Positions 9,775 through 62,854 are shown, counted from the stretch's first letter. The stretch: DNA of 64,000 nt from Candidatus Aenigmatarchaeota archaeon (GCA_043802485.1 JAZDKZ010000006.1:135497-199496), one strand, 5' to 3'. The notes: generated by a model from the sequence alone, not told the origin. Numbers and translations are program-made.

Positions 9775-9790
9775 CCTTTTCACCTCCTTT

Positions 9791-9806: not shown

Positions 9807-9816
9807 TATATTGTAT

Positions 9817-9830
9817 TGAATATATATTCA
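9817..9830. promoter_or_regulatory. Perfect 14-bp palindrome TGAATATATATTCA, a candidate operator
   Basis: Read directly. It sits just downstream of the BRE/TATA-like box at 9836-9849. The same half-site ATGAATATATAT recurs at 9520-9531. Confidence 0.45.
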
Positions 9831-9835
9831 TAACA

Positions 9836-9849
9836 TTATTTAAAGCTTT
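9836..9849 (-). promoter_or_regulatory. BRE/TATA-like promoter box of the DUF5320-DUF134-trx operon
   Basis: The coding strand reads AAAGCTTTAAATAA about 65 nt upstream of ATG 9774. Confidence 0.45.
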
Positions 9850-10004
9850 CATTTCAATAACTTTTTAAATCTAAGAACAATATTATATAACGGGTCAGTA
9901 TGGCCGGGGAATTACTTTGTCAATAAAAGTGTAAATGATTTCTCCAGCCATGTTTCTAGAAAAATAGTTCATTTAAATAAAGAAAGGATAAAAGATATTT
10001 CTAT

Positions 10005-10075
10005 GCGGGGATGGCAGAACGGCCATGCGGTCGCCTGCAGAGCGACAGACCTGGGTTCGACTCCCGGTCCCCGCT
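10005..10075 (+). tRNA. tRNA-Cys (GCA)
   Basis: Hand-folded cloverleaf. Acceptor stem GCGGGGA/TCCCCGC, anticodon arm GTCGC-CTGCAGA-GCGAC, T arm CTGGG-TTCGACT-CCCGG. The discriminator U73 is the tRNA-Cys identity base. A TATA-like TTTAAATAAA lies about 27 nt upstream. Confidence 0.9.
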
Positions 10076-10088
10076 TCATGGTGCTTCT

Positions 10089-10988
10089 ATGATATACAAG
10101 AACATACTAGAGACTATTGGTAAAACGCCTTTGGTAAGAATAAACCGATTAACAGGAAAGGAAGACGCGACCGTTCTTGTAAAGATGGAAAAGTTCAATC
10201 CTGGCGGTTCTGTCAAGGACAGGATTGCAAAGTACATGATTGAGAACGCCGAGAAAGAGGGAAAGCTGACAAAGGACAAGATAATTCTGGAGCCAACTTC
10301 AGGTAATACTGGTATTGGTCTGGCAATGGTGGCTGCTGTTAAGGGCTACAAGGTGCTTTTCACAATGTCCGAATCTGTCAGTGTCGAGAGGAGAAAAATA
10401 CTGAAAGCTTTCGGAGCAGATCTCTTGCTCACTCCGAAGAGCAAGGGTACTGACGGCGCCATAGAAAAGGCATACATGATGGCTAGGGAAAAACCTAAAA
10501 AATATTTCTTGCCTGACCAATTCAACAACAAGTACAATGTTCTTGCCCATTACGAGACGACCGGCGAGGAGATAATCAAGGACACCAAAGGAAAGATAGA
10601 CATGTTCATTGCTTCTATAGGGACAGCAGGAACAATAACAGGAGTGGGAAAAAGACTAAAGGAGTTCAATCCAGATATTAAAGTGGTTGGTGTTGAGCCC
10701 CACTTTGGTCATAAAATCCAGGGGTTGAAAAGCATGAAAGAGGCCTACCGGCCAGGCATATACAATAGGAAGGCAATGGACGAGAAAGTTTTCATTGATG
10801 ACGAGGACGCTTTTGAGACAGCAAGGCAGATGGCTAAGCAAGAGGGTCTGCTTGTTGGCATGAGCTCAGGAGCAGTCGTGTTTGTAGCACTAAAAAAAGC
10901 AAAAGAATTAGGTAAAGGAAAGACAATAGTAGTAATACTGCCTGACGGTGGAGAAAGATACCTGACTACAAAACTGTTTGATGATTAA
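10089..10988 (+). CDS. cysK: Cysteine synthase / O-acetylserine sulfhydrylase family PLP enzyme
   Basis: The start was moved to ATG 10089, because the track ORF runs through the tRNA. TPLVRINRL, KMEKFNPGGSVKDR (PLP lysine) and TSGNTGIGLA are signatures of the CysK/CBS fold-type II family. GGTG lies 5 nt upstream of the ATG. Confidence 0.85.
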   Translation: MIYKNILETIGKTPLVRINRLTGKEDATVLVKMEKFNPGGSVKDRIAKYMIENAEKEGKLTKDKIILEPTSGNTGIGLAMVAAVKGYKVLFTMSESVSVERRKILKAFGADLLLTPKSKGTDGAIEKAYMMAREKPKKYFLPDQFNNKYNVLAHYETTGEEIIKDTKGKIDMFIASIGTAGTITGVGKRLKEFNPDIKVVGVEPHFGHKIQGLKSMKEAYRPGIYNRKAMDEKVFIDDEDAFETARQMAKQEGLLVGMSSGAVVFVALKKAKELGKGKTIVVILPDGGERYLTTKLFDD

Positions 10989-12396
10989 TATGACACTGAA
11001 AATTTTCAATACATTGACTAGGAGCAAAGAGGTATTCAAACCGATAGATGAGAAAGAGGTGACCATGTACACGTGCGGTCCTACTGTTTACGGTATTCCT
11101 CACATTGGCAATTACAGGAGCTTTGTTCTGGAGGACATGATGAGAAGATATCTAGAGTATCTAGGTTACAAGGTCAAGCAGGTCATGAACATCACTGACA
11201 TAGACGACAAGACCATAAGGGATTCTGGGAAAGAGAACGTTTCTCTGAAGGATTTCACTGAGAGGTACACGAAAATATTCATGGAAGATCTGAAAACACT
11301 GAACGTTCAGAAGGCCTTCATGTATCCAAAGGCTACAGAGCATTTTGAAGAAATGGTGAAAATAGTAAGGTTTCTGTTCGAGAAAGGCTACGCTTACGAG
11401 AAGCTGGGGAGCGTCTATTATGATATTTCTAAATTCAAGGGATATGGCAAGCTGTCCAAAGTCGATCTCAGCGGCATAAAGAATGGTGCAAGGGTTGATG
11501 TCGACGAATACGAGAAGGACAATCCTCAGGATTTTGTTCTCATGAAGAGGTCTACCACAGAAGAGTTGAAAAGAGGGATATTCTATGAGAGTAAATGGGG
11601 CAAGGTCAGGCCTGGATGGCACATCGAGTGCTCGACAATGTCCATGAAATATCTCGGCGAGACTATTGACATACACACAGGCGGGGTCGACAACATGTTT
11701 CCGCACCATGAGAACGAGATAGCTCAGTCAGAGGCGTATACAGGGAAGAAGTTTGTCAACTACTGGATGCACATCGAGCATCTGATAGTTAATGGCGAGA
11801 AGATGTCAAAGTCCTTGGGCAACTTTATTACTCTCAGGGATCTTCTTGAGAGGGGTTATGATTCCAAGGCTATAAGGTATCTGTTATTGTCTGCTCATTA
11901 CAAAAGCATCCTTAACTTTACTGACGAGAGCTTGAAGGACGCTGAGAGGACAGTGAACAATATCAATGACTTTGTTGATAGGATCAGCAAGCTGAAGATA
12001 ACAGGAGATTATAGTGATGATTTGAGCGGCAAAGTAAAGGAAGCTAAGGCAAAGTTCGAGGGCTACATGAATGATGATTTCAACACACCGCAGGCCCTGT
12101 CAGCTGTCTTCGAGCTGATAAAGGAGACCAACAAGGCTATTGACAAGCTCTATCTTTCAGAGGCTAATCTGAAAGAGGTCTACAATCAGATGCTGGAGTT
12201 TGACAAGGTTCTTGGTGTTATCGAGATAAGGAAGAAAGAGCTTCCCAGAGAAATTCTAGAGCTGATAGTCAAAAGAGAAACTTATAGAAAGATGGCTGAC
12301 TTTGACGCTGCAGACAAGGTCAGAAAAGAATTGAACGAAAAGGGCTTTTGGGTTGAAGATGGACCGGAAGGACCCAGATGGAAGAAGGTAAGATGA
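10981..12396 (+). CDS. cysS: Cysteinyl-tRNA synthetase
   Basis: Class I motifs HIGN and KMSKS plus the overall CysRS layout. ATG 10981 overlaps the cysK stop by 8 nt (alternative ATG at 10990). Confidence 0.9.
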   Translation: MINMTLKIFNTLTRSKEVFKPIDEKEVTMYTCGPTVYGIPHIGNYRSFVLEDMMRRYLEYLGYKVKQVMNITDIDDKTIRDSGKENVSLKDFTERYTKIFMEDLKTLNVQKAFMYPKATEHFEEMVKIVRFLFEKGYAYEKLGSVYYDISKFKGYGKLSKVDLSGIKNGARVDVDEYEKDNPQDFVLMKRSTTEELKRGIFYESKWGKVRPGWHIECSTMSMKYLGETIDIHTGGVDNMFPHHENEIAQSEAYTGKKFVNYWMHIEHLIVNGEKMSKSLGNFITLRDLLERGYDSKAIRYLLLSAHYKSILNFTDESLKDAERTVNNINDFVDRISKLKITGDYSDDLSGKVKEAKAKFEGYMNDDFNTPQALSAVFELIKETNKAIDKLYLSEANLKEVYNQMLEFDKVLGVIEIRKKELPREILELIVKRETYRKMADFDAADKVRKELNEKGFWVEDGPEGPRWKKVR

Positions 12397-17650: not shown

Positions 17651-18895
17651 TCATCCACCTTTCTTCACTTTCAGCTTCTTGTAGACATAATTGACAGGAT
17701 TCTTCCTGCAGTACCTTTCCTTTTGGCAGACACCTATTGACTTGTAGAACATGCTTGATTCGCAGTTGGCAGGCATCAGGTCCCTGTTCTGTCTGGTGTG
17801 CCACTTTAGCTGGGTCTTGATAAACCTGTTGCTCAAGGGCTTGTAGTTCTCGTTGTTCCAATCCATAATCCTTTTCTCAATGTCCTCGGGGGTCCAGTTC
17901 ATGTTCTTCAGGAAGGTTATCAAAGTAAAAAGCGATCTCTTCTTGCCGTCTGGTATGCCTTTCAATATGTTCTTTATGCAAGGAGGAAAGTTCTCCTCTG
18001 CAATGGGTGTCGAGAACTTCTTGCCCTTAAACTCTCTTACGATTTCTTTCTCCTTGGGCTGCTTGGCCTTCCATTCCAACGACTTTAGCAGCAATTCTGC
18101 TGCCTCGCCTTCCTTGTTGACAAGAAACTTTACATCGGTTTTGACATTCTCCGGCTTGGCAATATCCTTATTGAAATGCTTCAGGTCCTCGAACCTTATG
18201 GGCTTTGAGACTAGCCAGAACTTTGTATGTAGAGAATAGGGCATCCTGAAAAGGTGGCGGTTGCCCCAGTCCTTTTCTATCTCAAGGAATTCGTAAGGCG
18301 ACAATTCTGACACCGAGTCAACGGTCTTGATAAGTGAGGACACACCTCCTTCCATTTCTATCAACTCTTCTAATAACCTTTCCTTTACAGAGTACCTTAT
18401 GTACTCGGCTAGGGTTCTAGGTATCTCGGGATATCTTTTGCTGATTTCCTTGAAGTCTATCTTCTCTGGGAAAGCTTCCTTGGCTATGGCTATGTGAAAA
18501 CCACGGGAACCGCTGAACTTGATGGTGGGCATCACGCCCATGTCCTTGAGGAAGTTGTAGACCACTCTTGTCCCGACAACAGCATGCTCCAGCTTTGCCT
18601 TGGCGTCAATGTCTATTATGAAATCAAAGCCGCTTCTCATGCTGTTTATTTCCTTCGGGCTCAGCTCGGTAGACAGCTGCATGGGCTGGGTCCATCTTTC
18701 AACAGAGCAATGGAAAGAGACTACCCCTTTTTTCACACGCTCCATTATGTCGTTAGGATAAACTATGATGTCAGGCCTGCTAAGAAAGGAACCATTCTCC
18801 AAGGAGCCGACGACCTCCCTGCCCTTTGCTATCATAGTAATCTCCTTCTGTATATCGTCCCTAGAATAGTACTTGATGACCTCGGACAGATTCAT
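17651..18895 (-). CDS. DNA primase, fused PriS catalytic domain plus PriL C-terminal-like Fe-S domain
   Basis: 414 aa. PriS motifs are FDFIIDIDAK and FSGSRGFHIAI. The C-terminal third has the PriL-type FPPCIKNIL...KRSLFTLITFL motif plus three further Cys (C-x16-C-x6-C). Confidence 0.8.
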   Translation of the reverse strand: MNLSEVIKYYSRDDIQKEITMIAKGREVVGSLENGSFLSRPDIIVYPNDIMERVKKGVVSFHCSVERWTQPMQLSTELSPKEINSMRSGFDFIIDIDAKAKLEHAVVGTRVVYNFLKDMGVMPTIKFSGSRGFHIAIAKEAFPEKIDFKEISKRYPEIPRTLAEYIRYSVKERLLEELIEMEGGVSSLIKTVDSVSELSPYEFLEIEKDWGNRHLFRMPYSLHTKFWLVSKPIRFEDLKHFNKDIAKPENVKTDVKFLVNKEGEAAELLLKSLEWKAKQPKEKEIVREFKGKKFSTPIAEENFPPCIKNILKGIPDGKKRSLFTLITFLKNMNWTPEDIEKRIMDWNNENYKPLSNRFIKTQLKWHTRQNRDLMPANCESSMFYKSIGVCQKERYCRKNPVNYVYKKLKVKKGG

Positions 18896-18928
18896 AGATA
18901 GAATTTTGGGATTGAACTATTTAAAAAA

Positions 18929-19216
18929 TCATCTTCCAATAATTTTAGAAATCCCTTTGCCTATAGGTTTGACAAAATTACTATAAAAATCAGAGGGATG
19001 TTCTCTGTTGTATGTTCTTTTAAGATCATAAGCAGTCTTTACACCACTTGCGGCTAGAAAGGTCAGTAACAAAGCTTCATTTTGAATTTGAGGACCAATA
19101 ATAAGAGGTACATAAATATTTCCTGATAGTTCTATAACATCCTTTACTGTCTTTGTTTTGTCCTCGTTCCATCTTTCGTTTACGAAATTACGAAGCTTGT
19201 ATCTTATGTTTTTCAT
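18929..19216 (-). CDS. Hypothetical protein (95 aa)
   Basis: An internal ATG at 19216 avoids overlap with the deoxyhypusine synthase gene. No recognisable domain. AT-rich. Confidence 0.3.
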   Translation of the reverse strand: MKNIRYKLRNFVNERWNEDKTKTVKDVIELSGNIYVPLIIGPQIQNEALLLTFLAASGVKTAYDLKRTYNREHPSDFYSNFVKPIGKGISKIIGR

Positions 19217-19248
19217 ATTTAGAATATGAAGCGGAAGCTTTAAAATGT

Positions 19249-20181
19249 TTAACTTAATCTTTCCTTCAAAGAGGAAACTATCAAGGGCAAAGCGATGGTC
19301 GCGTCGCAGTTGACACAACATATGTCAGAATCCTTTGTTAGCTTGCCCCAGCTTATGGCTTCTCTTAGCGTGGCTCCGGAAAGACCTCCGAATTGGGGCT
19401 TGTCTGTTGTTATCTGGACAGCGTACTTGTGCGGCTTTTCCGGTATAAGGGCAGATTGCAGGATATAGTTCTTTGGCACGCCGCCACCAAGGATGAAAAC
19501 CCCGCTGCTTCCCCCCTTGTCCTTAATATCATAGTTAAGCTTTATCATCAAGTCCAGGTCCTTTCTAGGATTGATACTAAGCTTCTTGTCCTGGGAATAC
19601 ATCCATACCTGCAGGCCGAGTATGGAATCGAAAAATGCTGGAATTATTATCTTGACCCCGCTTTCGGCGGCAGCCTTTGCTATAGAGTCCTTGTCGTCAA
19701 TCCTTTTTCCTATCTCCTCCATCAGCTCGTATGTGGAGAAATCGCCTTCACATATTTTTTCCAGTATCTTTTGTATGTTCTTCTCGAAAGCTACAAAAGT
19801 CCTGTCAGGCGACAGAACGTCGTATATCCTGCTCATCTTCTCTTCGGCCATCTTGACGTCGTCAACAGTGTCAGGATTGCAGTGCAGATAATGCTCCTTG
19901 CCAAGCGATATTGACAGGTCGTGTGTTATGTTGGCGCCGGTTGATACTATCACGTCAACCCAGCCGTTCCTAATCATCTCCACTATGCATTTTCTCATGC
20001 CTGCCGGAACCAGAGCTCCTGACAGACCAAGGAACTTTACGCATTTCTTGTCCCTTATCATCTTTTCCAGAACATCGACAGAATCACTGAGCTTTCTGGC
20101 GTTGAAGGCTGTCGATTTCATCTGCCGTATCAGCTCATCCACGGTTTGTTTCTTTGGCTCAATATCCTTGACATTAGTCAT
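19249..20181 (-). CDS. dys: Deoxyhypusine synthase
   Basis: 310 aa with the typical DHS layout (FLGLSGALVPAGMR, GGGVPKNY, WGK near the C-terminus). Confidence 0.9.
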   Translation of the reverse strand: MTNVKDIEPKKQTVDELIRQMKSTAFNARKLSDSVDVLEKMIRDKKCVKFLGLSGALVPAGMRKCIVEMIRNGWVDVIVSTGANITHDLSISLGKEHYLHCNPDTVDDVKMAEEKMSRIYDVLSPDRTFVAFEKNIQKILEKICEGDFSTYELMEEIGKRIDDKDSIAKAAAESGVKIIIPAFFDSILGLQVWMYSQDKKLSINPRKDLDLMIKLNYDIKDKGGSSGVFILGGGVPKNYILQSALIPEKPHKYAVQITTDKPQFGGLSGATLREAISWGKLTKDSDICCVNCDATIALPLIVSSLKERLS

Positions 20182-20268
20182 GAGACTAATTCCTTCCTTA
20201 AGAATATAAATTATTAGCGGTTTCGTTGATTTGACAAGGTTTAAGAACTTCTTAAGGAAATAAGTATC

Positions 20269-20853
20269 ATGGCAAAAAAAGAAAAACCATTCTATTCAAA
20301 GCCATGGTTCTGGGCTCTGGTCATAGTCGCTGTTGTTGCAATCTGGATTGTAGGCACATACAACAGCTTCATTTCTATGGATCAGGCAATAAACAACCAA
20401 TGGGCTCAGGTAGAGACACAGTACCAGAGAAGGGTAGACCTTATACCTAATCTTGTGAACACAGCCAAAGGCTACATGCAGTTCGAAAAGTCACTTCTGG
20501 AAGAGATAACAGCTCTCAGGAGCCAGTGGACATCCACATCTGATATCGATGACAAGGTGAACATAGGCAATGCTTTGGACTCTGCTCTAGGAAGGTTGAT
20601 AGTTGTCTATGAGAACTATCCTCAGCTGCAGTCGATACAGGCTGTTTCATCATTGATGGACGAGCTGTCAGGAACAGAGAACAGAATAGCTGTTGAAAGG
20701 ATGAGGTACAACGAAAAGGTCAGGAGCTTCAACACGGCAGTTCTGGTGTTCCCGTCAAACATGCTCGCAGGCATGTTCGGGTTCAGCGAGAGGCCGTACT
20801 TTGAGGCCCAGGAAGGCGCTGACGTCGTACCTGTTGTGAACATAACGGTCTGA
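20269..20853 (+). CDS. lemA: LemA family protein
   Basis: 194 aa. N-terminal TM helix plus YNSFISMDQAINNQWAQVETQYQRRVDLIPNLV, the LemA signature. Confidence 0.9.
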   Translation: MAKKEKPFYSKPWFWALVIVAVVAIWIVGTYNSFISMDQAINNQWAQVETQYQRRVDLIPNLVNTAKGYMQFEKSLLEEITALRSQWTSTSDIDDKVNIGNALDSALGRLIVVYENYPQLQSIQAVSSLMDELSGTENRIAVERMRYNEKVRSFNTAVLVFPSNMLAGMFGFSERPYFEAQEGADVVPVVNITV

Positions 20854-24155: not shown

Positions 24156-24230
24156 GGGCTCGTAGTATAACTTGGCTTAGTATTCCAGCTTCGGGGGTTG
24201 GAGATCGGAGTTCAAATCTCCGCGAGCCCA
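24156..24230 (+). tRNA. tRNA-Pro (CGG)
   Basis: Hand-folded. Acceptor stem GGGCTCG/CGAGCCC, anticodon arm CCAGC-TTCGGGG-GTTGG (anticodon CGG, G37), T arm CGGAG-TTCAAAT-CTCCG, discriminator A. A TATA-like TTAAATATAAA lies about 30 nt upstream. Confidence 0.85.
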
Positions 24231-24270
24231 CTTGCTATATCATAATATTATCATTTCTAGGTAGTGAATA

Positions 24271-24287
24271 AACGATAGCTTTAAATA
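24271..24287 (+). promoter_or_regulatory. Extended promoter box AACGATAGCTTTAAATA
   Basis: It lies about 40 nt upstream of ATG 24324. Near-identical 17-mers occur at 56016 and 58162. Confidence 0.55.
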
Positions 24288-24323
24288 GTTTTTCTTTGTA
24301 TTATGTTACTATAGAGTGGTAAC

Positions 24324-26582
24324 ATGAACAGAAACGTTTTGATTGCAACGATTGTTTTGACAATCTTGTCTCTATTGCCAATAATCGGTTATGCATGCGA
24401 TGCGGAATTGTCCCAGGTGAGCGTCAACAGCTGCACGGGTTCAGGAGAGCTCTTGTTGTATGTTGGAGAGCAGACACAGGATCCAGAAACATCTTTCACT
24501 GTTCAGAGAGACCAGGTATTGATATTTACAAAGCTTAATTATGTGTCTTGGATAGAGGTCAAGATAGACAATGTTGCTGTGACACCACAGGTCGTTCTTG
24601 AAAAGTCAACCTCATTTGGTGTAAATGTTTATGCTGTAAGCACAACGCCGGGTTCGGTTGTTTCTATTAAAGCAGAGACAACTTACGGAGCAAGGGCAAT
24701 ACAGGGTTACCTTGCGCAGGATTCGGCAAATCCTTATATGGATGTTAACACCATCGAGATAGTTTATGACGAAGTCCAGGACAGCACAATGCAGCTTTTG
24801 CCAGGCGTTTATAATTATATAGTTTTCGACAAGTATACCAAACATAATGGTGGTTCTGTTGACAACAGGTATGTCAGCGTTTACATAGAGGGTCCTGAGG
24901 GGGTTGTTTATGACCTGACATACAGACAACCTTTCCCGACAGGAACTGAGGGAGTTGTAGTTGATAGTTTTACAGTGGAAGGCGGCTCTTATCTGTTCTC
25001 AGTGGACACTGATGACAGCACATATCTGCCTCTTTTCAACTGCCCTGAGTACGAGTGCTACAAGGACTCTGCTTGCGAGGCTTACTGTGATGGTTCTGTA
25101 AGGTACTATGACGGCGTATGCTCTGAAGGCACATGCTCCTACCAGAGCCAGGACTGTGGCGAATTGACAGCAGGGATCATCTGCTCTGGCGCAGGAACTG
25201 ACACCTTGGAAGGGGTAACAGCTGAATACGATTGCAGCTGCGGCGAGTGCCTGATCGGCGAGCCAATAATCACCAGCTGGACTTGTGATGTTGAGATGGA
25301 GTACGAGTCACAGGAATGCGGCGGTGATTATTATTATTGCTATTATGATGACGGCTATGTGTGGGGCGAGTCTTGGCCCGAATTTGAGACCGACTGCTAT
25401 GACGGACATGACAATGATAATGACGATCTCATAGATGGGGACGACGATGATTGTTATGAATGCTTTGCTAATGAAGATTGTGACGATTCTAACGCATGCA
25501 CAATAGACGAATGTGTTCTTGGGGCATGCACTTATACATGCGTGGAAGATGGGACAGAATGTGACGACGGAAATTCAAATACGGTGAACGATGCATGCTA
25601 TTCGGGTTCTTGTGTAGGCGAAACAGACAACGATGGTGACGGTTATGGTGATGATGACTGTGATGACTCTAATCCTGCTATAAACCCTGGCGCAGAGGAA
25701 GTGTGCTGCGACGAGATTGATAATGATTGTGACGGCGAGGTCGACGAGGGATGTGAGTGCTCAACTGACGAGGACTGTGATGATTTTAATGTTTGTACAA
25801 TCGACAAGTGTGTAGAGGGCTTTTGTACTTACACCAATGCGGAGAACGGCACCGTCTGCAACGACAGCAACTCTAGCACTGTAAACGACGTGTGCATGCT
25901 TGGTGTGTGCGGCGGTGAAGACGACGATGATGGCGATGGTTATGGTGATGATGACTGTGATGATTCCAACCCAGACGTCCATCCAGGCGCTATAGAATTG
26001 TGCGCAAACGGTGTGGATGACGATTGTGATGGCCAGACTGATTGTAAAGACTCAGACTGCTCAAGTTATTCTACATGCCTGCCGAGAGCTCCTTCTGGAG
26101 GCGGTGGTGGAGGCTTTTTCACAGCAGCAATAGTAACAAGCACAGAGTGCGGTAACGATAAGTGCGAATACAAGGAGAACTGCATTAACTGCCCTGAGGA
26201 CTGTAAGAAAGCAGACGAGGTCTGCTGTGCCAACGTGACATACAGCGGAGAATGCTGCACAGACTATGACTGCGGGGCTGGCTTTGAGTGCACAGTCGGC
26301 AAGCAATGCCAGCTTTTGGAAGGCGGCGCTGTAGAGACACCTTGCCTCGAGGACTGGACATGCTCTAATTGGTCTGTTTGTCTGGGTGGTAAGCAGAAAA
26401 GAACATGCGTCGACCAGAACGACTGCGACACTGTCTTCAACAAGACTGCAGAAATGCAAGAGTGTGTAGAGATATTGCCGATAACAGGTCTTTTCGCTTT
26501 CATGACTTCACCTTTGTTCGGGGTAATAGTTTCAGCATTTGTAGTGTTCCTGATACTGTTTCTCTGGAGAAGGAAGAAGTAG
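24324..26582 (+). CDS. Cysteine-rich secreted surface protein with MopE-like metal-binding repeats and a C-terminal LPXTG-type sorting signal
   Basis: 752 aa. The N-terminus has a Sec-type signal peptide. Two 99-aa repeats contain DCDDSNPxxxPGAxExCxxxDxDCDG. The protein is very rich in Cys and Asp. The C-terminus reads LPITG, then a 26-residue hydrophobic stretch, then RRKK. Confidence 0.8.
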   Translation: MNRNVLIATIVLTILSLLPIIGYACDAELSQVSVNSCTGSGELLLYVGEQTQDPETSFTVQRDQVLIFTKLNYVSWIEVKIDNVAVTPQVVLEKSTSFGVNVYAVSTTPGSVVSIKAETTYGARAIQGYLAQDSANPYMDVNTIEIVYDEVQDSTMQLLPGVYNYIVFDKYTKHNGGSVDNRYVSVYIEGPEGVVYDLTYRQPFPTGTEGVVVDSFTVEGGSYLFSVDTDDSTYLPLFNCPEYECYKDSACEAYCDGSVRYYDGVCSEGTCSYQSQDCGELTAGIICSGAGTDTLEGVTAEYDCSCGECLIGEPIITSWTCDVEMEYESQECGGDYYYCYYDDGYVWGESWPEFETDCYDGHDNDNDDLIDGDDDDCYECFANEDCDDSNACTIDECVLGACTYTCVEDGTECDDGNSNTVNDACYSGSCVGETDNDGDGYGDDDCDDSNPAINPGAEEVCCDEIDNDCDGEVDEGCECSTDEDCDDFNVCTIDKCVEGFCTYTNAENGTVCNDSNSSTVNDVCMLGVCGGEDDDDGDGYGDDDCDDSNPDVHPGAIELCANGVDDDCDGQTDCKDSDCSSYSTCLPRAPSGGGGGGFFTAAIVTSTECGNDKCEYKENCINCPEDCKKADEVCCANVTYSGECCTDYDCGAGFECTVGKQCQLLEGGAVETPCLEDWTCSNWSVCLGGKQKRTCVDQNDCDTVFNKTAEMQECVEILPITGLFAFMTSPLFGVIVSAFVVFLILFLWRRKK
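25473..26066 (+). repeat. Intragenic tandem duplication, 2 x 297 nt
   Basis: Unit 1 starts at GAAGATTGTGACGAT (25473) and unit 2 at GAGGACTGTGATGAT (25770). For example, GGTTATGGTGATGATGACTGTGATGA is identical at 25641 and 25938. Confidence 0.8.
26475..26489 (+). other. LPITG (LPXTG-type) motif codons
   Basis: ttg ccg ata aca ggt, in frame, 31 codons before the stop. Confidence 0.7.
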
Positions 26583-53012: not shown

Positions 53013-53390
53013 ATGGCCAAAAAACAAACAGGATGGGTCAAAGCAAGTGGTTGGCTTTTTGTACTAGGTATTTTGATTTCAGTTGTGGCGGGTTTGGTTC
53101 CTAGTATCGAACCGGCTATGGTAACGGGTGTTTTAGCAGTGATGGGTTTCGTCATCGGTTTACTCGGTGCATTGGGCGTTGGAAGCATTGACAAGACAGA
53201 CGTCAACATGTTCCTTTTAGCTGTAGTCGCATTGATGGCAGCAGGAGGCGCAGGAACAGCTTTCGCAAACGTAATGTACATTGGAAGCTACATGATGGCG
53301 ATAGTGAACTACATAGGTGTCTTAGTAGTACCAGCAGCAGTCTTAATTGCCTTGAAGGCATTATGGACTTCAGCATCGACAAAGTTCTAG
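53013..53390 (+). CDS. Small polytopic membrane protein (125 aa)
   Basis: Four hydrophobic helices, with AGGTGA 6 nt upstream of the ATG. It may be distantly related to the 57.7-59.3 kb membrane-protein family (shared AAG..A.F stretch). Confidence 0.45.
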   Translation: MAKKQTGWVKASGWLFVLGILISVVAGLVPSIEPAMVTGVLAVMGFVIGLLGALGVGSIDKTDVNMFLLAVVALMAAGGAGTAFANVMYIGSYMMAIVNYIGVLVVPAAVLIALKALWTSASTKF

Positions 53391-55787: not shown

Positions 55788-56023
55788 AAGAGATGCTTGA
55801 AGAGATCAAGGTCATGACAGAAAAGATAGAGCCTTTGGTCGAAAAGGTAGTGATTAAAGATGAAAAAGGTCAGGAGATGCTCACCAACATGAAGGCCTAC
55901 ATAGAGGATTCCAAGCACTTTCTTGAGAAAGGCAAGGAATTGAAGAGTTATGAGGCCATTGTCTGGGCATGGGCTATCCTTGAGATTTGTGAAGAATTGG
56001 ACGTTTTTTCTATAGAACGATAG
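55784..56023 (+). CDS. DUF357-like small protein
   Basis: 79 aa. AYIEDSKHFLEKGKELKSYEAIVWAWAILEICEELDVF fits my recollection of the DUF357 pattern. ATGA overlap with dphB. Confidence 0.45.
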   Translation: MKEMLEEIKVMTEKIEPLVEKVVIKDEKGQEMLTNMKAYIEDSKHFLEKGKELKSYEAIVWAWAILEICEELDVFSIER

Positions 56024-56032
56024 CTTTATATT
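56016..56032 (+). promoter_or_regulatory. Extended promoter box AACGATAGCTTTATATT
   Basis: 46 nt upstream of ATG 56078. Identical 17-mer at 58162 and 16/17 identity at 24271. A second shared block, ATATTACTGTTAGGTAGTAAAT, follows. Confidence 0.55.
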
Positions 56033-56077
56033 CTTTGTGAAAGATATTACTGTTAGGTAGTAAATAATAGTGATAAT

Positions 56078-57085
56078 ATGGCTGAAGGTCAAGTTACTCC
56101 AGGAGAATATGCAATATTGAAAGGTTTGGGAGTGTTGGATAAAAAAATAGACAAAACAGAAAAATTCCCTACATATATTGCAAGAAATGATGACCAGATG
56201 GAAAACGAATTGAGACAAAAGGGTAGATTAAGGCCGGAGCCAAAAAAAGGTCCATGGGATGAACTCCACGAAGCTTTCAAGTTTCTATACAAAATCGACG
56301 AGAAAGGAGGTATAGTAGATGCTATTGTAGGACCTGATGGCCAACTACCAACTCTAATGGATATATATGGAAAGATGGACTTTCGTGGTGTAGCTTGGAA
56401 CTATGGCCTAGGTTATGTCAACTCCTTCTTAAGTGGATGGAGTGACGGAGGAATAGAAGCTGATGCAGAAGTAAAAGGTATAGTTCATGATATAAAAATA
56501 AAATATCCCACAAGTGATGTTTTTGATGATGGTTCTATGCTGGAATATTATGAAAAAATAAGAATTCCTTTGGATAGAATGAAAAAGATGGTTCCTATAA
56601 AAGACGAGAACGGAAACAATACGGGTGGGTGGGAATACAAAACAGGTTCACCAATTTCCGAATTCGTATACAACGACAAAGGTCAGTTAATTGCTGCTGG
56701 AGGAAACTTTGGAGGCAACCTACCAGATAACTCTAATTTTTACGGAATTAATGGTAGAAATGGTGGTATTGGTATTCCTGTAGAAACAGGAAATATAGAA
56801 TATATCATAAAGATGAAAAATAAACAGGAGGTTAAAAAAATGAGCAACAAAAAAACAAACGGACCAACATACATGGTTCTTAATGGACTTGAAAACGGCG
56901 GAGGAATTTCGATTCCTATGAAAGAAACAGAGGTAGCATCTCAAAGAATAACAGAGCAATTAATGAAACCGTCAGAAAGCGACTATCATATCAGAAATGT
57001 AATTAATAGTAGAGATAAACAGATTTCCTACCTGAAAGGCCAAGTAACAAGATACAAGAACAAACTGAAGAAGCAAAAACAGTAG
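56078..57085 (+). CDS. Hypothetical soluble Gly/Asn-rich protein with a basic coiled-coil C-terminus (335 aa)
   Basis: Long open frame behind a strong promoter box. No signal peptide or TM helix, and no family recognised. Confidence 0.6.
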   Translation: MAEGQVTPGEYAILKGLGVLDKKIDKTEKFPTYIARNDDQMENELRQKGRLRPEPKKGPWDELHEAFKFLYKIDEKGGIVDAIVGPDGQLPTLMDIYGKMDFRGVAWNYGLGYVNSFLSGWSDGGIEADAEVKGIVHDIKIKYPTSDVFDDGSMLEYYEKIRIPLDRMKKMVPIKDENGNNTGGWEYKTGSPISEFVYNDKGQLIAAGGNFGGNLPDNSNFYGINGRNGGIGIPVETGNIEYIIKMKNKQEVKKMSNKKTNGPTYMVLNGLENGGGISIPMKETEVASQRITEQLMKPSESDYHIRNVINSRDKQISYLKGQVTRYKNKLKKQKQ

Positions 57086-57121
57086 TTAATTTATAAATAT
57101 GCAGTTTTGTATATTCTTCAT

Positions 57122-57691
57122 ATGGCTTCAGTTGATCTGATAAACCTGCTGTTCAACGAGATACTGAAAATAGACCCGTCTATAATGTACAACTACACGA
57201 CTTTGTCAGATCAAATCCTTTATTTATTCTTTATACCTCATGTTTTACTGTTCCTGTTTATTTACGCTTTCTCTTTCGGTATGGTAAAAAAGGTCGTAGG
57301 AGATAACAAGACCTTTAGCTATCTATTGGGTCTGGCGTCTTACATATATTTGGTATATGCCGGCTGGTACGGAAGGCTAGTAACACTCTTTTTGGGATGG
57401 TTGTACATTGCCCTAGGTCTGGCCCTGTTCCTGTTTTTCGTGAGCATAATATGGCATCCTTCGGCAACTTCGGCAGGAATGAAACTTGTCGGAGAGGCTG
57501 GGAAAGAACTGAGAAAGAAGGCGAGCAAGGGGAATCAGATAGAAGCATTGGAAGACGAATTGAAATTCATTAAAAAGAGAATGAAAGATTTAGACGGGCA
57601 GCGTTCATCCAACCCGGCAGCTGCTTACGAATATGAGAACTATAAGAGACAGGAAGAGGCTCTGAAAAGAGAGATCAAAAAATTAAGTTGA
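57122..57691 (+). CDS. Membrane protein (3-4 TM) with a cytoplasmic coiled-coil tail
   Basis: ATG 57122 is preferred over the track TTG at 57107. Hydrophobic helices are followed by KKASKGNQIEALEDELKFIKKRMKDL...EEALKREIKKLS. Confidence 0.5.
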   Translation: MASVDLINLLFNEILKIDPSIMYNYTTLSDQILYLFFIPHVLLFLFIYAFSFGMVKKVVGDNKTFSYLLGLASYIYLVYAGWYGRLVTLFLGWLYIALGLALFLFFVSIIWHPSATSAGMKLVGEAGKELRKKASKGNQIEALEDELKFIKKRMKDLDGQRSSNPAAAYEYENYKRQEEALKREIKKLS

Positions 57692-57695
57692 TAAG

Positions 57696-58169
57696 ATGGT
57701 ATTCGACACTTTAATGCTCCAGTCAACAGAATTTCTAGTACCTTTCCTTTTTTCTTTGGCAGTCATATTTGGTATTTTGGAAGTAACAAGAATCTTTAGA
57801 AACAAGGCAGTAAACTTCATAGTATCTTTTGCTCTTTCTTTTTTTGCTCTGGCTTATCCCGGTTTCATGGCTTTCATGTGGGCTAACTTCGGGCTAGTCG
57901 CCATGTTCTTCATAGCCATGTTCTTTATGTTGTTTATTCTAAAGGTTTTTGGGATGGGTGGCAAAAGCAGCCAGGATTCTGTAATAATAAACGGTGCCAT
58001 ACTTTTTGTTCTATTATCTTTAAGCTACTTGTACGTAGATTCTTTCCCATCAGTCCCTATTATTGGAGAGGGACAGAATCTTATTCTTCTGATATCTGTA
58101 GTGCTTATCATATCGATATTCTGGGCAGCCTACAAAATGGGCTCTGGAAGCGGTCAAGAAAAACGATAG
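57696..58169 (+). CDS. Small polytopic membrane protein, family member 2
   Basis: 157 aa, starting 4 nt after the preceding stop. It shares FSLAVIFGIL...ALSFFAL...PSVPIIG with the next two genes. Confidence 0.55.
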   Translation: MVFDTLMLQSTEFLVPFLFSLAVIFGILEVTRIFRNKAVNFIVSFALSFFALAYPGFMAFMWANFGLVAMFFIAMFFMLFILKVFGMGGKSSQDSVIINGAILFVLLSLSYLYVDSFPSVPIIGEGQNLILLISVVLIISIFWAAYKMGSGSGQEKR

Positions 58170-58178
58170 CTTTATATT
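58162..58178 (+). promoter_or_regulatory. Extended promoter box AACGATAGCTTTATATT
   Basis: 38 nt upstream of ATG 58216, followed by ATATTACTATAAGGTAGTAAAT. Confidence 0.55.
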
Positions 58179-58215
58179 CAAGTTCCAAGTAATATATTAC
58201 TATAAGGTAGTAAAT

Positions 58216-58779
58216 ATGAAGCATAATAAAATCGCATCAGTTTTGATCGGAATGTTGCTGGCAGCAACGCCCGTTTTTGCCAATCCTATGGAGGATATGA
58301 TAAAAGGCCTTAGGGCAGCAGGCTTCCAGCTGGTTTTGTTATGGTTATTGACGCTGGCAATAGTCTACGGCGTGCTTTCGCACCTGAATTTGCCAAAGTC
58401 TATATCGACAAGAGGAGTCATAGCAATTGTCTCTTCGTTCATGGTTTTGATTGCAGCAGCAGGAACTCAGGCAGCCAACTTTGTGAGCACCCTGACAACC
58501 TCTTCAATAGTGGTCGCATTTGGCTTGATGATAGCCATGATATTCCTGGAGATAACCGGGGCAAAGGTAGGAGACGTCCATATATTCGGCAAGTATCCAA
58601 AGTTTTTTGCAGGAGCAATAATAGTGCTTTTCATATTGATATTCATAGGAGCAGGAGGACTAGGGATACTGAACCTTCCTTCAATAGGATTTTCACTATC
58701 TGATCCCCTGTTAGCAATAGTTTTTTTCCTCATAATCATGGTGGCAAGTATTTGGATATTGGTTAAAGAAAGTAAATAA
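58216..58779 (+). CDS. Small polytopic membrane protein with a signal peptide, family member 3
   Basis: 187 aa with LLWLLTLAIVYGVLSHLN...SSFMVLIAAAG...LPSIGFS. Confidence 0.6.
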   Translation: MKHNKIASVLIGMLLAATPVFANPMEDMIKGLRAAGFQLVLLWLLTLAIVYGVLSHLNLPKSISTRGVIAIVSSFMVLIAAAGTQAANFVSTLTTSSIVVAFGLMIAMIFLEITGAKVGDVHIFGKYPKFFAGAIIVLFILIFIGAGGLGILNLPSIGFSLSDPLLAIVFFLIIMVASIWILVKESK

Positions 58780-58807
58780 ATTAAATAAAAAAATTAGGTG
58801 AAAAAAA

Positions 58808-59350
58808 ATGACTAACTTGATAAACATGGTATGTCCGCCAGGAACAAGCTGCGCATTAATGGGTGGATTCGGTTTGCCAGAAATATTATTGTGGGTGTTG
58901 TCATTCGCAATAGTCTACACAGCTACGACAAAACTGAATTTCATGGGCAAAAAGCCAGCATTGCTAGCATCATTAGCAATCAGCTTTTTCGTCTTAATGG
59001 CAGCTCCAGCGGCTTTGATAACAGCAATAGCAGGCATGTCAACAGGTTTCCTTGCATTGATGACAGGCGCAATAGTAATAATTGCTCTGTTCGGTGCATT
59101 CAGACCTATGCAACTCAAATATAAAGCAAATAAAGATGGGAAAATGGTTTTAGACGAGCAAAATGACATGTTAGCACAACACTCAACAGCAGTATCTGTT
59201 GTGTTGCTGTTAGCAGCTGGTTTGATATTCTGGACATACGGCGGAGCACAGTTGATAGGAATAACATCTATTCCTTCGATAGGTGCTGTGCCATGGATAT
59301 TGGTCATAATCGGTGCAGCAGTCTTGTGGATGCTTACAGGAAAAGATTAG
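58808..59350 (+). CDS. Small polytopic membrane protein, family member 4
   Basis: 180 aa. LLWVLSFAIVYTATTKLN...ISFFVLMAAPA...IPSIGAV is collinear with member 3. AGGTGA lies upstream of the ATG. Confidence 0.6.
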   Translation: MTNLINMVCPPGTSCALMGGFGLPEILLWVLSFAIVYTATTKLNFMGKKPALLASLAISFFVLMAAPAALITAIAGMSTGFLALMTGAIVIIALFGAFRPMQLKYKANKDGKMVLDEQNDMLAQHSTAVSVVLLLAAGLIFWTYGGAQLIGITSIPSIGAVPWILVIIGAAVLWMLTGKD

Positions 59351-59382
59351 AAGTAGCAAACCAAGGCTAGTGATTTCAGTGA

Positions 59383-59404
59383 CCTTTTTTTTCTTTTTCT
59401 TTTA
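59383..59404 (+). terminator. Oligo-T tract (T8 then T5) after the membrane-protein array
   Basis: CCTTTTTTTTCTTTTTCTTTT in a convergent intergenic region. Archaeal terminators are typically oligo-T. Confidence 0.45.
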
Positions 59405-59436: not shown

Positions 59437-60174
59437 TCAGTCTCTATAAGAAGGCTGTTTCTCGCTCTTTACCTTGTCAATCAGTTCGGTCATGTTCTTG
59501 ATGTTCTGTGACAATTCTGGTAGGAAATCCTTGAAAACCTTCTCTATGGAACCGATTCTTCCTTCGATGTGCTCGACAGAGCCGCCGAAATCATCTAACT
59601 TGGAGGTAAGGCCCGTATCCCTCTGCTTGATGGAAGTCTCTAGCTCCTTTATCCTCTTCCTTAGGTCATCTAGCTGGGATTGAAGCATCATGTCCCTTCT
59701 CTCATAATCAAGCAGCCTCTCCTCGAACTCTTGCCATTTCTCCTCGACAATGCCCTCGATAATCTCCTCGATGGTAATCTCGCCCATAGGGCTCTCTGCC
59801 TGTCTGACATCTGTCTGCTCAAAGGTAAAGGGCTGGGCAGCCTGCTGGGCAGGAATCTGTCTTGGCTCGTCCGGCGACACTAGTCTCTCAGGGGGATAGC
59901 CCAAAGGCATGGGATGCCGCTGGATATCCATTGACATGGGCTCTGGCATCTGTATTGCAGGCGGCGCCTGCATATGAGGCATCTCAGAGCTAACCTTCTC
60001 CTTTACAGCAATCCTCAAGGCTTTTTCAATAACATCGCCTGAAAAGCCCTGATTTTGTAAGTGGTTCCTTATCTCATTCTCAGAAAGACCTTGTGAGGCA
60101 TAACTCAGAACAAGGTCGACAGGAACGTAAACCTTCTTTACTTCAGGATGCTTTTTCTTCGGCAGTAAAAACAT
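59437..60174 (-). CDS. Hypothetical protein: small helical N-domain, Pro/Gln-rich linker, C-terminal coiled coil (245 aa)
   Basis: Open frame. Heptad-rich C-terminus (LQSQLDDLRKRIKELETSIKQRD...). No family recognised. Confidence 0.5.
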   Translation of the reverse strand: MFLLPKKKHPEVKKVYVPVDLVLSYASQGLSENEIRNHLQNQGFSGDVIEKALRIAVKEKVSSEMPHMQAPPAIQMPEPMSMDIQRHPMPLGYPPERLVSPDEPRQIPAQQAAQPFTFEQTDVRQAESPMGEITIEEIIEGIVEEKWQEFEERLLDYERRDMMLQSQLDDLRKRIKELETSIKQRDTGLTSKLDDFGGSVEHIEGRIGSIEKVFKDFLPELSQNIKNMTELIDKVKSEKQPSYRD

Positions 60175-60548
60175 TATCTCAAATCCCTAATAATCCTTCG
60201 GACGTCTTCCTTTGTTACAAAGTTTGTCTTTAATGGATTAAATAACTCTATCATGTTCTCCAATTCCCTCAATTCTGTCCTCTTGGCCATCTTTTCCATG
60301 TTCTTGTTCATCCTTAATAATTCATTGTCGAACCTCAATATATTGTTTTCAATTTCAGTCAATCTCTGGTCCAGGTCTTCGCTAAGGGCCCTCCTCTCCT
60401 CGTTTATTTTTAGCAAGGCATCCTGCAAGGTGGAGGTACGGCCTTCGATAAGGGACGACCTTTCCTCTAGGTCTCTCAACCTTCTGGTCGTCTCGTTAGC
60501 CCTTCTTACCAACTCGTTGAGAATAGCTTGGATATTTCTTTCTGCCAT
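60174..60548 (-). CDS. Hypothetical coiled-coil protein (124 aa)
   Basis: Open frame overlapping the downstream gene start by 1 nt. Heptad-rich throughout. Confidence 0.45.
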   Translation of the reverse strand: MAERNIQAILNELVRRANETTRRLRDLEERSSLIEGRTSTLQDALLKINEERRALSEDLDQRLTEIENNILRFDNELLRMNKNMEKMAKRTELRELENMIELFNPLKTNFVTKEDVRRIIRDLR

Positions 60549-60622: not shown

Positions 60623-62854
60623 GTGGTTTTTGAGACAGATGTGAAAGATGGAGTTCTAAGGATGAACTGCCTAGGTTCGATATTCGGCTTTACTGTCGAG
60701 GATTCTGACGTTGTCATGGCCCGCGTCATAGAGAAGCTGATAGAGGAGAAGAGGGTTGTGAGCGTTGTTCTTGCCGAGACCCGTGAATACGAGTATGATT
60801 ATGACCAGACAAGGATGCTGAAGGAGATTGCCAATGTAGTGACAGTGGCTGTGAAGGAGAAGAAGCTGCTGTCTGTCAGAAACATCGCTGTGGGTGAATG
60901 CTCCAAATATCTGGCCCAGTGGTACGGCTGGATCAGGGACCTTGTCACCTTGCAGATGAGAGGCGACCCGATAGGAGCCTATGTTTCCCTGAACAGGGAG
61001 ATACGCCATCTGAAAACAAAGATGGTTTCTGATGAATACGTCAACTGCATAAAGTACTATCTTGACAACTGTTTGATGCCTTTGAAAGACATGCTCGACG
61101 CAACAGAGCTCATAGACAAGGCAAAGCCCTACGTGTCAGGCTACCATATCGGCGACAGGTCACTTTACAGAAGGTTCTTCAAGCCCACCATAAGGCCGAA
61201 CTTTATGTATACCAAATTCATGGCCCAGCCGCCACCTGGTGAAACTGTAGCAAGGTATAAGGTAGGAGATACGGACGTCGAGATTTTCAAGGTCCCTGGC
61301 AAGGTGCGTTACATCTACCACGCTGTCCCGCCAGAGTTCAAGCTGAACGAGGACGAGTACAACTTGTTGGATGCTGCCCGTAGAATTTTGGAGGAAAGAA
61401 GACCTAAAGAACTGGAGATGACCGGACAGCAGAGGATGAGGGAAATATTCCATACATTAAGTTTAGATCTATTAAGAGATTTGGCAGAGGAAGCTGGCAA
61501 GACTTTCGAGCCAGGCCAGTTGGAGAAGCTAGCCGAGATATTGACAAGGTACACGGCCGGTCTGGGTATTCTCGAAGTCTTGCTAAAGGACGACAAGATA
61601 CAGGACATTTTCATCAACTCACCAATGGGAAACATCCCTGTTTATATTTATCACCAAGATTATGAGGAATGCGAAACCAACCTTGTCCCGACAAGAGAGG
61701 ACGGAGACAGGTGGGCAACCCGTTTCAAGCTATTGTCTGGAAGGCCCTTAGACGAGGCCAATCCTGTTCTTGATTCAGAATTCGTTGTGCCTGGCGGAGT
61801 GGCCAGAGTCGCAGCCATTAATCCGAGACTGTCGCCTGACGGCTTGGGCTTTGCAATAAGAAGGCACAGATTCAAGCCATGGACTTTCCCTCTTTTCATG
61901 AAAGAGAAATACTTTGATTCGTTGTTCGGAGGCCTGCTATGGTTTATCGCATCCTACGGAAGGACCATACTTGTGGCAGGCACAAGAGGTGCCGGAAAGA
62001 CCTCTTTATTGGGAAGCATGATGCTCCAGATTCTCCCATATTACAGGATTGTTACATCAGAAGATACGCTGGAACTTCCTGTTGAGCAACTGAGGGTTTT
62101 GGGCTATAACATAGAAAGGTTGAAATCAAGATCTGTCATCACAAGAGTGGAGTTGGAACTGCCGGCAGAGGAAGTGATAAGGACTTCTTTGAGATTAGGC
62201 GACTCTTGTCTGTTCATAGGCGAAATCCGTTCGACAGAGGCAAGAGCCTTGTTTGAGGCCATGAGAATCGGGGCTATGGCCAATGTTGTCGCCGGAACAG
62301 TTCACGGCGACTCTGCCTACGGAGTTTACGACAGAATCATCAACGACCTGGGAGTACCTCCTACCAGTTTCAAGGCAGTCGATTTCATTGTTGTTTGTAA
62401 TAAACTGAAGACTTCTGACGGCCTGAGAACCTTCAGAAGAGTGACCGAGATAACAGAGGTGAGAAAGCACTGGAAGAAGTATCCGGACGACGAGGGCGGC
62501 TTTGTCAACCTCATGGAGTACGACTCGACAACTGACAAGCTGAAGGCTACTGACACGCTTCTGAACGGAGAGTCTGTCATTCTGAACCAGCTAGCTTCCA
62601 ATGTTCCTGGATGGGCAGGAAGATGGGACTATGTCTGGGACAATATCAACCTGAGGGCAAAGATTCTGGAAACAATCCTCAGAATATCGGAAGAAATGGA
62701 CAAGCCGGATCTACTGGAAGCAGAGACAACTGTAAAGGTCAACCAGATGTTCCACACACTTTCCGAGAAATCCAGGAAGGAACTGGGCCACATAGACTCC
62801 AAGAGAGTCTACGAGGAATGGCTTGAATGGTTTAAAGAATACGCAAGTGTCTAA
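60623..62854 (+). CDS. Type II/IV secretion-system family ATPase (FlaI/PilB/VirB11-like) with a long N-terminal extension
   Basis: 743 aa. Walker A GTRGAGKTS, Asp box/Walker B SCLFIGEIRSTEA and His-box-like VAGTVHG. The GTG start lies 5 nt after AGGTG. Confidence 0.85.
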   Translation: MVFETDVKDGVLRMNCLGSIFGFTVEDSDVVMARVIEKLIEEKRVVSVVLAETREYEYDYDQTRMLKEIANVVTVAVKEKKLLSVRNIAVGECSKYLAQWYGWIRDLVTLQMRGDPIGAYVSLNREIRHLKTKMVSDEYVNCIKYYLDNCLMPLKDMLDATELIDKAKPYVSGYHIGDRSLYRRFFKPTIRPNFMYTKFMAQPPPGETVARYKVGDTDVEIFKVPGKVRYIYHAVPPEFKLNEDEYNLLDAARRILEERRPKELEMTGQQRMREIFHTLSLDLLRDLAEEAGKTFEPGQLEKLAEILTRYTAGLGILEVLLKDDKIQDIFINSPMGNIPVYIYHQDYEECETNLVPTREDGDRWATRFKLLSGRPLDEANPVLDSEFVVPGGVARVAAINPRLSPDGLGFAIRRHRFKPWTFPLFMKEKYFDSLFGGLLWFIASYGRTILVAGTRGAGKTSLLGSMMLQILPYYRIVTSEDTLELPVEQLRVLGYNIERLKSRSVITRVELELPAEEVIRTSLRLGDSCLFIGEIRSTEARALFEAMRIGAMANVVAGTVHGDSAYGVYDRIINDLGVPPTSFKAVDFIVVCNKLKTSDGLRTFRRVTEITEVRKHWKKYPDDEGGFVNLMEYDSTTDKLKATDTLLNGESVILNQLASNVPGWAGRWDYVWDNINLRAKILETILRISEEMDKPDLLEAETTVKVNQMFHTLSEKSRKELGHIDSKRVYEEWLEWFKEYASV

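Follow-up and report, generated by a model that had tools for sequence, protein, structure and literature searches.

Archaeal type IV pilus (T4P) and Tad-like loci combine an ATPase of the FlaI/TadA type and a platform protein of the TadC type with proteins that carry class III signals, and they often contain additional, lineage-specific genes for uncharacterized membrane and cytoplasmic coiled-coil proteins, which evolve fast and escape profile searches (Makarova, Koonin & Albers 2016, PMC4858521; PMC6393860). An example is the intracellular coiled-coil protein arCOG07564 of subclade 4F, a subclade with an ATPase clade that is found in nanoarchaea as well, and the bindosome locus has the membrane proteins arCOG07264 and arCOG07329 (PMC4858521). 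For host attachment and exchange in DPANN archaea, T4P-like loci are the usual suspects, and their parts are poorly catalogued. Here we analyse a 64,000-nucleotide (nt) stretch of DNA (GCA_043802485.1 JAZDKZ010000006.1:135497-199496; hereafter the window), in which four genes for small membrane proteins (g2-g5) and two genes for coiled-coil proteins (cc1 and cc2) lie next to an ATPase and a platform gene. Exact-match homologues (V1818_03665 and V1818_03685, on a 265-kb contig) place the window in a Candidatus Aenigmatarchaeota metagenome-assembled genome (MAG), in agreement with the DPANN origin guessed in an initial annotation made from the sequence alone. We find that the locus is a type-IV-filament locus with a novel set of polytopic, putatively accessory proteins, restricted to one DPANN clade. 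It shares with the archaeal T4P loci described above the FlaI/TadA-type ATPase, the TadC-type platform and, in relatives, class-III-signal-like proteins, as well as the presence of extra lineage-specific membrane and cytoplasmic coiled-coil genes and of quickly evolving components that profile searches miss.

The initial annotation had described five consecutive co-oriented open reading frames (ORFs), g1-g5, that match no recognizable family. All five are present at the coordinates it gave, on the plus strand, and are real genes, and g2-g5 are under selection. Searches of g1-g5 against Pfam, NCBIfam, PHROGs and PADLOC profiles gave nothing above noise, transporter, pilin and housekeeping families included. 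Among known T4P and archaellum accessory families in Pfam and NCBIfam (PilM/N/O, FlaF/G/H/X, FlaC/D/E and TadB/Z), none matched g2-g5 and none matched cc1 or cc2 above its curated cut-off, and neither g1 nor a g5-family profile found a match among PDB sequences. The core of the locus consists of the following genes:

57122-57691, plus strand: g2, 189 amino acids (aa), N-terminus outside, three transmembrane (TM) helices and a cytoplasmic C-terminal coiled-coil hairpin
57696-58169, plus strand: g3, 157 aa, five TM helices, separated from g2 by a 4-nt gap
58216-58779, plus strand: g4, 187 aa, a Sec-type signal peptide followed by five TM helices; the most conserved member of the family
58808-59350, plus strand: g5, 180 aa, five TM helices; the loop from TM3 to TM4 contains a cytoplasmic beta-hairpin
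59437-60174, minus strand: cc1, 245 aa, cytoplasmic, with a small N-terminal helical domain, a Pro-rich linker and a C-terminal coiled coil
60174-60548, minus strand: cc2, a 124-aa coiled-coil protein with the conserved C-terminal motif FNPLKTNFVTKEEV
60623-62854, plus strand: secretion ATPase (FlaI/TadA/PilB superfamily) of 743 aa, extended at its N-terminus by about 220 aa
62855 to beyond 64000, plus strand: TadC/FlaJ-type platform, 5' part only, running past the window end

To the three collinear motifs reported in the initial annotation, which are found in g3, g4 and g5, profile comparisons add full-length similarity. Pairwise BLAST supported the g4-g5 relationship alone (E = 3e-5). Comparison by hhalign of deep alignments gathered from related loci joined g4 to g5 (99.9% probability, E = 7e-36), g3 to g4 (96.1%, E = 3e-9, 147 columns) and g3 to g5 (96.6%), and linked g3 to the distant members of the family (99.6%, E = 5e-25), indicating that g3, g4 and g5 are full-length paralogues. 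The TM1 signature of the distant members, G-F-[FY]-x-[FY]-x-L-P-[FW]-L-L-x-F-A-[IV]-x-Y-G-x-L, generalizes the first motif and is preceded by an amphipathic helix. Topologies derived from hydropathy, positive-inside charges and an AlphaFold2 model place the N-terminus of g3 and g5 outside and the C-terminus inside, with five TM helices between them; g4 is arranged alike after its signal peptide, whose predicted cleavage site lies between MKHNKIASVLIGMLLAATPVFA and NP, and which accounts for the cleavable-looking signal peptide previously ascribed to one member. An exhaustive hidden Markov model search of 1.84 billion representative proteins recovered 126 representatives of the family, 33-257 aa long, which fall into g5-like, g4-like and g3-like groups. 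Named members come only from Aenigmatarchaeota, one 'DPANN group archaeon' and one Nanohaloarchaeota MAG; in a recent phylogeny Aenigmatarchaeota, Terrarchaeota and Nanohaloarchaeota form a monophyletic clade, termed ATN (PMC13195033). No further g3/g4/g5-type copies were found elsewhere in the 64-kb window. The family is new and narrow, and no Pfam or NCBIfam model matches it; in 27 distant members Pfam gave only scattered sub-threshold TM noise (for example, DUF2070 and TauE).

Gly, Pro, Ala, Leu and Trp make up most of the conserved positions of g3-g5. Within the membrane, no charged residue is invariant in the alignments, and only one Glu, where TM3 ends on the cytoplasmic side, is semi-conserved; this pattern is more in keeping with helix packing than with catalysis, ion coupling or substrate binding. 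An AlphaFold2 model of g5 built from a 66-sequence alignment (predicted local distance difference test (pLDDT) 73.7, predicted TM-score 0.45) showed five TM helices and the beta-hairpin in the TM3-TM4 loop; Foldseek searches with it gave no match, the best E values being 2.2 for the PDB and 0.16 for BFVD. We also considered whether the small membrane proteins are split fragments of the platform, and rejected this because hhalign against the platform, ATPase, cc1 and cc2 families gave probabilities of at most 2.3%.

The initial annotation had described a tandem family of four membrane proteins, at least three of them clear paralogues; for g2, profile comparison did not demonstrate such kinship. 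In its best hhalign comparison, with the profile of the distant members, g2 reached 17% probability (E = 1.4e-3), collinear over 80 columns, whereas reversed-profile controls gave E values of 0.013-0.27 over at most 25 columns, so that g2 appears to represent a conserved family of its own or, at best, a distant and truncated relative of g3-g5. About 34 loci carry g2 orthologues. The protein is the member for which a cytoplasmic coiled coil had been noted, correctly: hydropathy and positive-inside charges place its charged C-terminal helical hairpin of about 70 residues (about 120-189) in the cytoplasm. This is also the compartment of cc1, cc2 and the ATPase.

Between the membrane cluster and the ATPase lie cc1 and cc2, which the initial annotation did not mention and which are the most faithful neighbours of the cluster. 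Their profile matches are weak: for cc1, DUF7310 and FlaC_arch (14.8 bits against a cut-off of 27.8, E = 0.039), all below cut-off, and for cc2, sub-threshold coiled-coil matches of the CdvA type. The CdvA and FlaC matches are generic coiled-coil noise far under the curated cut-offs. The ATPase matched PF00437 with 51.5 bits (cut-off 24.9) over residues 447-586 and carries the Walker A sequence GTRGAGKTS. We rejected its assignment as an archaellum FlaI equivalog, as it scored 127 bits against the NCBIfam model NF058587, which has a cut-off of 550, and no FlaF/G/H families were found in the neighbourhood. In some relatives the ATPase orthologue contains inteins, of which the 743-aa copy in the window is free: the ORF at 7040-12322 of locus L007 (loci of relatives are given L numbers) encodes 1,760 aa with two Intein_splicing/LAGLIDADG insertions, and the ATPase ORFs at 6164-9967 of L014 and 6157-9939 of L019 span about 3.8 kb.

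The platform fragment in the window scored 21.4 bits against the T2SSF profile, below the cut-off of 25.2, because it is truncated by the window end; the full-length orthologue in L002 scored 31.9 bits, above it. The same truncation probably explains why the machine had been taken to lack pilin genes, a claim that we revise. Directly 3' of the platform, relatives encode proteins that start with MKG or MRG followed by a hydrophobic helix, and in 15 of 33 loci the first ORF to follow the platform has a FlaFind-like N-terminus ([KR][GA] plus a hydrophobic stretch), compared with 113 of 1,910 background ORFs (6%). Pfam searches of these pilin candidates gave no match to a class III model. Pilins that escape Pfam are usual for archaea (PMC6393860), and DPANN loci have been noted to hold undetectable pilins (PMC6393860, PMC9563170). 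Judged from its genes, the neighbouring module appears to be a complete type-IV-filament system, with ATPase, T2SSF platform and, in relatives, class-III-signal-like proteins. A separate occurrence of pilin-type ORFs was seen in L102, which has the membrane cluster and no ATPase or platform nearby: three consecutive ORFs at 18720-20701 have classical archaeal pilin N-termini of the KGQ|TSFEY and KAQ|ASFEF types.

The arrangement of these genes is kept well beyond close relatives. The order g2-g3-g4-g5, then cc1 and cc2, then ATPase and platform recurs in about 40 loci, with sequence, order and position of g2-g5 maintained across dozens of genomes at 30-70% identity and with two to four g3/4/5-type copies per locus. 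The full order was held in seven contigs recovered through g5 homologues, which have two different upstream flanks, in most of the 80 metagenomic loci recovered with the distant subgroup, and in 10 of 11 Aenigmatarchaeota species-representative loci recovered through cc2, a further 2 being too short. In all 12 cc2-seeded genome loci cc2 directly adjoins the ATPase in divergent orientation. The same order is found in a Nanohaloarchaeota MAG (QJJ-9) whose flanks are unrelated; there, three tandem family members are accompanied by a TM-plus-coiled-coil protein at the g2 position, by clear orthologues of cc1 (E = 2e-21) and of cc2 (E = 1e-16) and by short class-III-type ORFs after the platform. 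Neighbours were counted in those 19 metagenomic loci in which the cluster is flanked by at least 4 kb on each side: cc1 and cc2 each occurred in 16, g2 in 15, the platform in 14 and the ATPase in 13, compared with 10 for DUF357 and 9 for Dph5. Two loci, L049 and L064, keep the cluster with cc1 and cc2 and have no ATPase within 8-10 kb, and L020 keeps cc2, ATPase and platform without the membrane cluster, a distribution that fits a bridging or adaptor role for the coiled-coil proteins.

From this gene neighbourhood, together with topology and residue conservation, we propose, with about even confidence, that g2-g5 serve the adjacent T4P-like machine as accessory membrane subunits specific to the lineage, coupled to its ATPase by coiled-coil adaptors; the functional link is associative. 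In such a machine, g3, g4 and g5 together with g2 would assemble into a hetero-oligomeric collar or scaffold in the cytoplasmic membrane beside the TadC-like platform. The coiled-coil hairpin of g2 and the soluble cc1 and cc2 would form an adaptor layer that docks or regulates the N-terminally extended FlaI/TadA-like ATPase, and ATPase and platform would polymerize the class-III-signal-like proteins encoded just downstream. That the proteins assemble physically, that the coiled coils act as adaptors and that any of them serves filaments or host contact are inferences. The protein g1 would stand outside this core, as an interchangeable soluble occupant of a slot that shares the strong promoter. 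An uncharacterized membrane-embedded apparatus tied to a type-IV-filament machine, much as the initial annotation suggested, is still the best reading; the conduit and contact-device roles offered with it remain speculation, and the lack of conserved polar TM residues argues against a conduit or transporter.

The gene g1 and the control elements of the cluster are as follows:

56078-57085, plus strand: g1, 335 aa, soluble; one segment is rich in Gly and Asn, and the C-terminal tail is basic
56024-57121: the g1 slot in the window, a hypervariable island with counterparts at 1432-8860 of L102 and 1128-7722 of L084
56016-56077, plus strand: g1 promoter and leader, the BRE/TATA (transcription factor B recognition element and TATA) box AACGATAGCTTTATATTC followed by the leader ATTACTGTTAGGTAGTAA
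57090-57099, plus strand: g2 TATA-like element TTTATAAATA, about 32 nt 5' of the g2 ATG
58162-58215, plus strand: g4-g5 promoter and leader, a AACGATAGCTTTATATTC box that overlaps the g3 stop codon, followed by the leader ATTACTATAAGGTAGTAA
58797-58801, plus strand: g5 Shine-Dalgarno sequence GGTGA, 7 nt upstream of g5, kept in all loci compared
59385-59404, plus strand: oligo-T tract TTTTTTTTTCTTTTTCTTTT, between the convergent g5 and cc1

Both the Gly/Asn-rich segment and the basic tail of g1 had been noted before and are present in the translation. What did not survive is the unit of five genes: g1 is an interchangeable occupant of a hypervariable slot, not a conserved component of the cluster. 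Only 7 relatives were found among 5.8 billion proteins, and the AlphaFold2 model built from the 7-sequence alignment (pLDDT 37.5) was too poor for a structure search. Across relatives, the interval between DUF357 and g2 spans 0.7-7.5 kb and holds one to six genes, depending on the locus, from at least five mutually unrelated groups of soluble proteins, and the g1 of the window is kin to the slot occupants of L001 and L014 only. The GC content of g1 is 0.365, compared with 0.435 for the window, and no other gene of the block is as AT-rich. The Nanohaloarchaeota locus has no counterpart of the slot.

The 18-nt promoter box is exact at 56016 (g1) and 58162 (g4) and recurs with 3 mismatches at 24271, upstream of a Cys-rich surface protein, compared with a chance expectation of 0.07 matches; none of 100 shuffles reached 3. 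This bears out the proposal that the cluster and the major Cys-rich surface protein have a promoter box in common. The surface protein (24324-26582) is 752 aa long, with a signal peptide, Asp-rich CxDxDxDG modules, two putative metal-binding repeats of the MopE type (PF11617, 70.7 bits) and, at the C-terminus, a TM anchor, and is probably the major surface (S-layer-like) protein; a tRNA-Pro (24156-24231) lies just 5' of its promoter. A composite of promoter and leader is common to the three genes (24271-24323, 56016-56077 and 58162-58215). The g1 promoter region is similar in L001, L002, L008 and L009, and the g4 TATA at -45 is kept together with the leader in L001, L002, L004, L006, L007 and L008. 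The leader (TTACTA-TAAGG-TAGTAA) is an inverted repeat of 6 bp whose loop contains the AGG of the ribosome-binding site. It occurs in the window only at g1 and g4, and retains its pairing in the g1 copy through a G-U wobble; it could be a hairpin for translational control or a plain initiator/Shine-Dalgarno consensus. The TATA-like element of g2, kept at -28 to -32 in L002, L004, L006, L008 and L009, is a probable promoter of a leaderless g2-g3 transcript. No TATA element or promoter was found upstream of g5, in the window or in the compared loci, and because g5 has the Shine-Dalgarno sequence alone we take it to be co-transcribed with g4. With a conserved TATA of its own for g2, in the window and five relatives, the cluster probably forms three transcription units, g1, g2-g3 and g4-g5, rather than the two proposed initially, with predicted 5' ends near 56055, 57120 and 58195. 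The oligo-T tract downstream of g5 is a probable archaeal terminator.

Several further features of these loci were recorded. In L021 (11365-13196), two inserted nucleotidyltransferase-like genes, for proteins of about 250 and 360 aa, separate cc1 from g5, and a similar pair follows the membrane cluster in L102 (11667-13533); these pairs may be mobile toxin-antitoxin-type or defence cassettes that target the locus. In L023, from a distant DPANN lineage, where a single family member lies beside Dph5 and DUF357, a gene between these two (4935-5258, minus strand) adjoins the lone member and encodes 107 aa with a single TM helix and a coiled coil, a hint that the family has long been accompanied by a TM-plus-coiled-coil partner. 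In the window, a 125-aa Gly-rich protein with about four TM helices and no family assignment (53013-53390) is encoded at the same position as in L002 (2241-2618), L004 (2244-2624) and L008 (3126-3506). A tRNA-Cys at 10005-10075 (ARAGORN, Rfam) overlaps the start of the mechanically called ORF 10011-10988, whose true start is therefore probably further downstream.

Several observations weigh against a role of g2-g5 as pilus accessory subunits. The functional evidence is guilt by association, and because these genomes are small and their gene order is generally well preserved, the synteny may partly be historical. The membrane cluster lacks pilus genes nearby in 3 of the 19 informative loci (L072, L081 and L102), the lone family member of L023 has none beside it either, and L020 shows the converse, a pilus module without the cluster. 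The promoter of the ATPase differs from that of the membrane genes. To our knowledge, no type-IV-filament system uses small 5-TM paralogues, which leaves the proposed role without precedent.

Some of these points recur in the alternative that fares best, namely that g2-g5 with cc1 and cc2 form an autonomous membrane and coiled-coil apparatus, for envelope or membrane shaping, division or S-layer anchoring, and that its adjacency to the ATPase is inherited. We regard this as possible, if rather doubtful. The cluster is tied to cc1 and cc2 more tightly (16 of 19 loci) than to the ATPase (13 of 19), L049 and L064 have the cluster with cc1 and cc2 and no ATPase within 8-10 kb, and L072, L081, L102 and L023 have family members and no pilus genes in the vicinity. 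The promoter that g1 and g4 have in common is that of the major surface protein and not that of the ATPase, and the weak matches of cc2 to CdvA-type proteins could be read in the same direction. However, those matches, like that to FlaC, do not rise above generic coiled-coil noise, cc2 adjoins the ATPase divergently in every one of the cc2-seeded genome loci, and the entire block persists in the Nanohaloarchaeota MAG despite its different flanks.

A second alternative takes the 5-TM paralogues as a small transporter or channel, for ions, nutrients or host lipids, that is a mere neighbour of the pilus locus or a conduit used with the pilus. DPANN cells depend on imported metabolites, and the proteins are polytopic, probably form oligomers and are probably expressed at a high level; one family member, P0035, is labelled 'amino acid transporter' in one source. 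We nevertheless consider a transporter quite improbable: no transporter-family profile matches, the best sub-threshold matches are scattered and inconsistent, the g5 model has no structural match in the PDB, and the TM helices of the family contain no conserved charged or polar residues. The lipid-uptake version is weakened further by the inference that ancestors of Aenigmatarchaeota synthesized their own phospholipids (PMC13195033).

That the block is a mobile, viral or defence island, or a set of spurious ORFs, is scarcely credible and for g2-g5 largely refuted, since its support (the AT-rich g1 in a hypervariable slot and the nucleotidyltransferase-like pairs inserted nearby in L021 and L102) contrasts with the conservation of g2-g5 across dozens of genomes, the lack of PHROGs or PADLOC matches and of a BFVD match to the g5 model, and the lack of any integrase or repeats seen, island-like behaviour being confined to the g1 slot, for which alone this explanation is possible.

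A bolder reading is that the ATN clade has an organelle of its own for host contact or uptake, derived from a pilus as a type-IV-filament machine rebuilt with a novel polytopic collar, in which g2-g5, cc1 and cc2 would be the membrane base; the proteins of the g1 slot, co-expressed from the same strong promoter, would be host-specific effectors or cargo that it handles. We think this unlikely as a whole. The hypervariable and probably strongly expressed slot beside the module is a possible determinant of host specificity. Together, g2, three to four 5-TM paralogues, two coiled-coil proteins, the ATPase, the platform and pilin-like proteins make up a newly defined, conserved ten-gene module, and our literature searches found no description of this module or of the g3/g4/g5 family. 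Its members are concrete candidates for complex prediction, for proteomics and for the interpretation of cryo-electron tomography in enrichments of the ATN clade.

Compared with known proteins, the g3/g4/g5 family resembles DUF5518 and DUF2070 of Pfam in being composed of small archaeal polytopic membrane proteins without an assigned function. It belongs to neither: g4 matches DUF5518 weakly (E = 0.029), below the curated cut-off, and 4 of the 27 distant members match DUF2070 (best E = 1.9e-4), below the cut-off and inconsistently. None of the described archaeal T4P systems has tandem 5-TM paralogues together with a 3-TM coiled-coil protein, as the g2-g5 locus does. In the bacterial type IVa system, PilM/N/O/P include small coiled-coil membrane proteins, encoded beside the motor genes, that scaffold platform and ATPase, and g2-g5 might work in a similar way; however, PilN and PilO each cross the membrane once and have periplasmic domains, and PilM resembles actin, whereas g2-g5 are polytopic with minimal extracellular loops and are not homologous to them. 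Another analogy is offered by crenarchaeal FlaX and by FlaC/D/E of the euryarchaeal archaellum, membrane-anchored or soluble coiled coils that form a cytoplasmic ring on which the FlaI ATPase docks. They share no significant sequence similarity with g2, cc1 or cc2 (the FlaC_arch score of cc1 stays well below its cut-off), FlaX has one TM helix compared with three in g2, and the ATPase here is not the archaellum FlaI. In architecture and compartment, g2, cc1 and cc2 are nonetheless FlaX/FlaC/D/E-like, an analogy of how the proteins may work rather than of descent.

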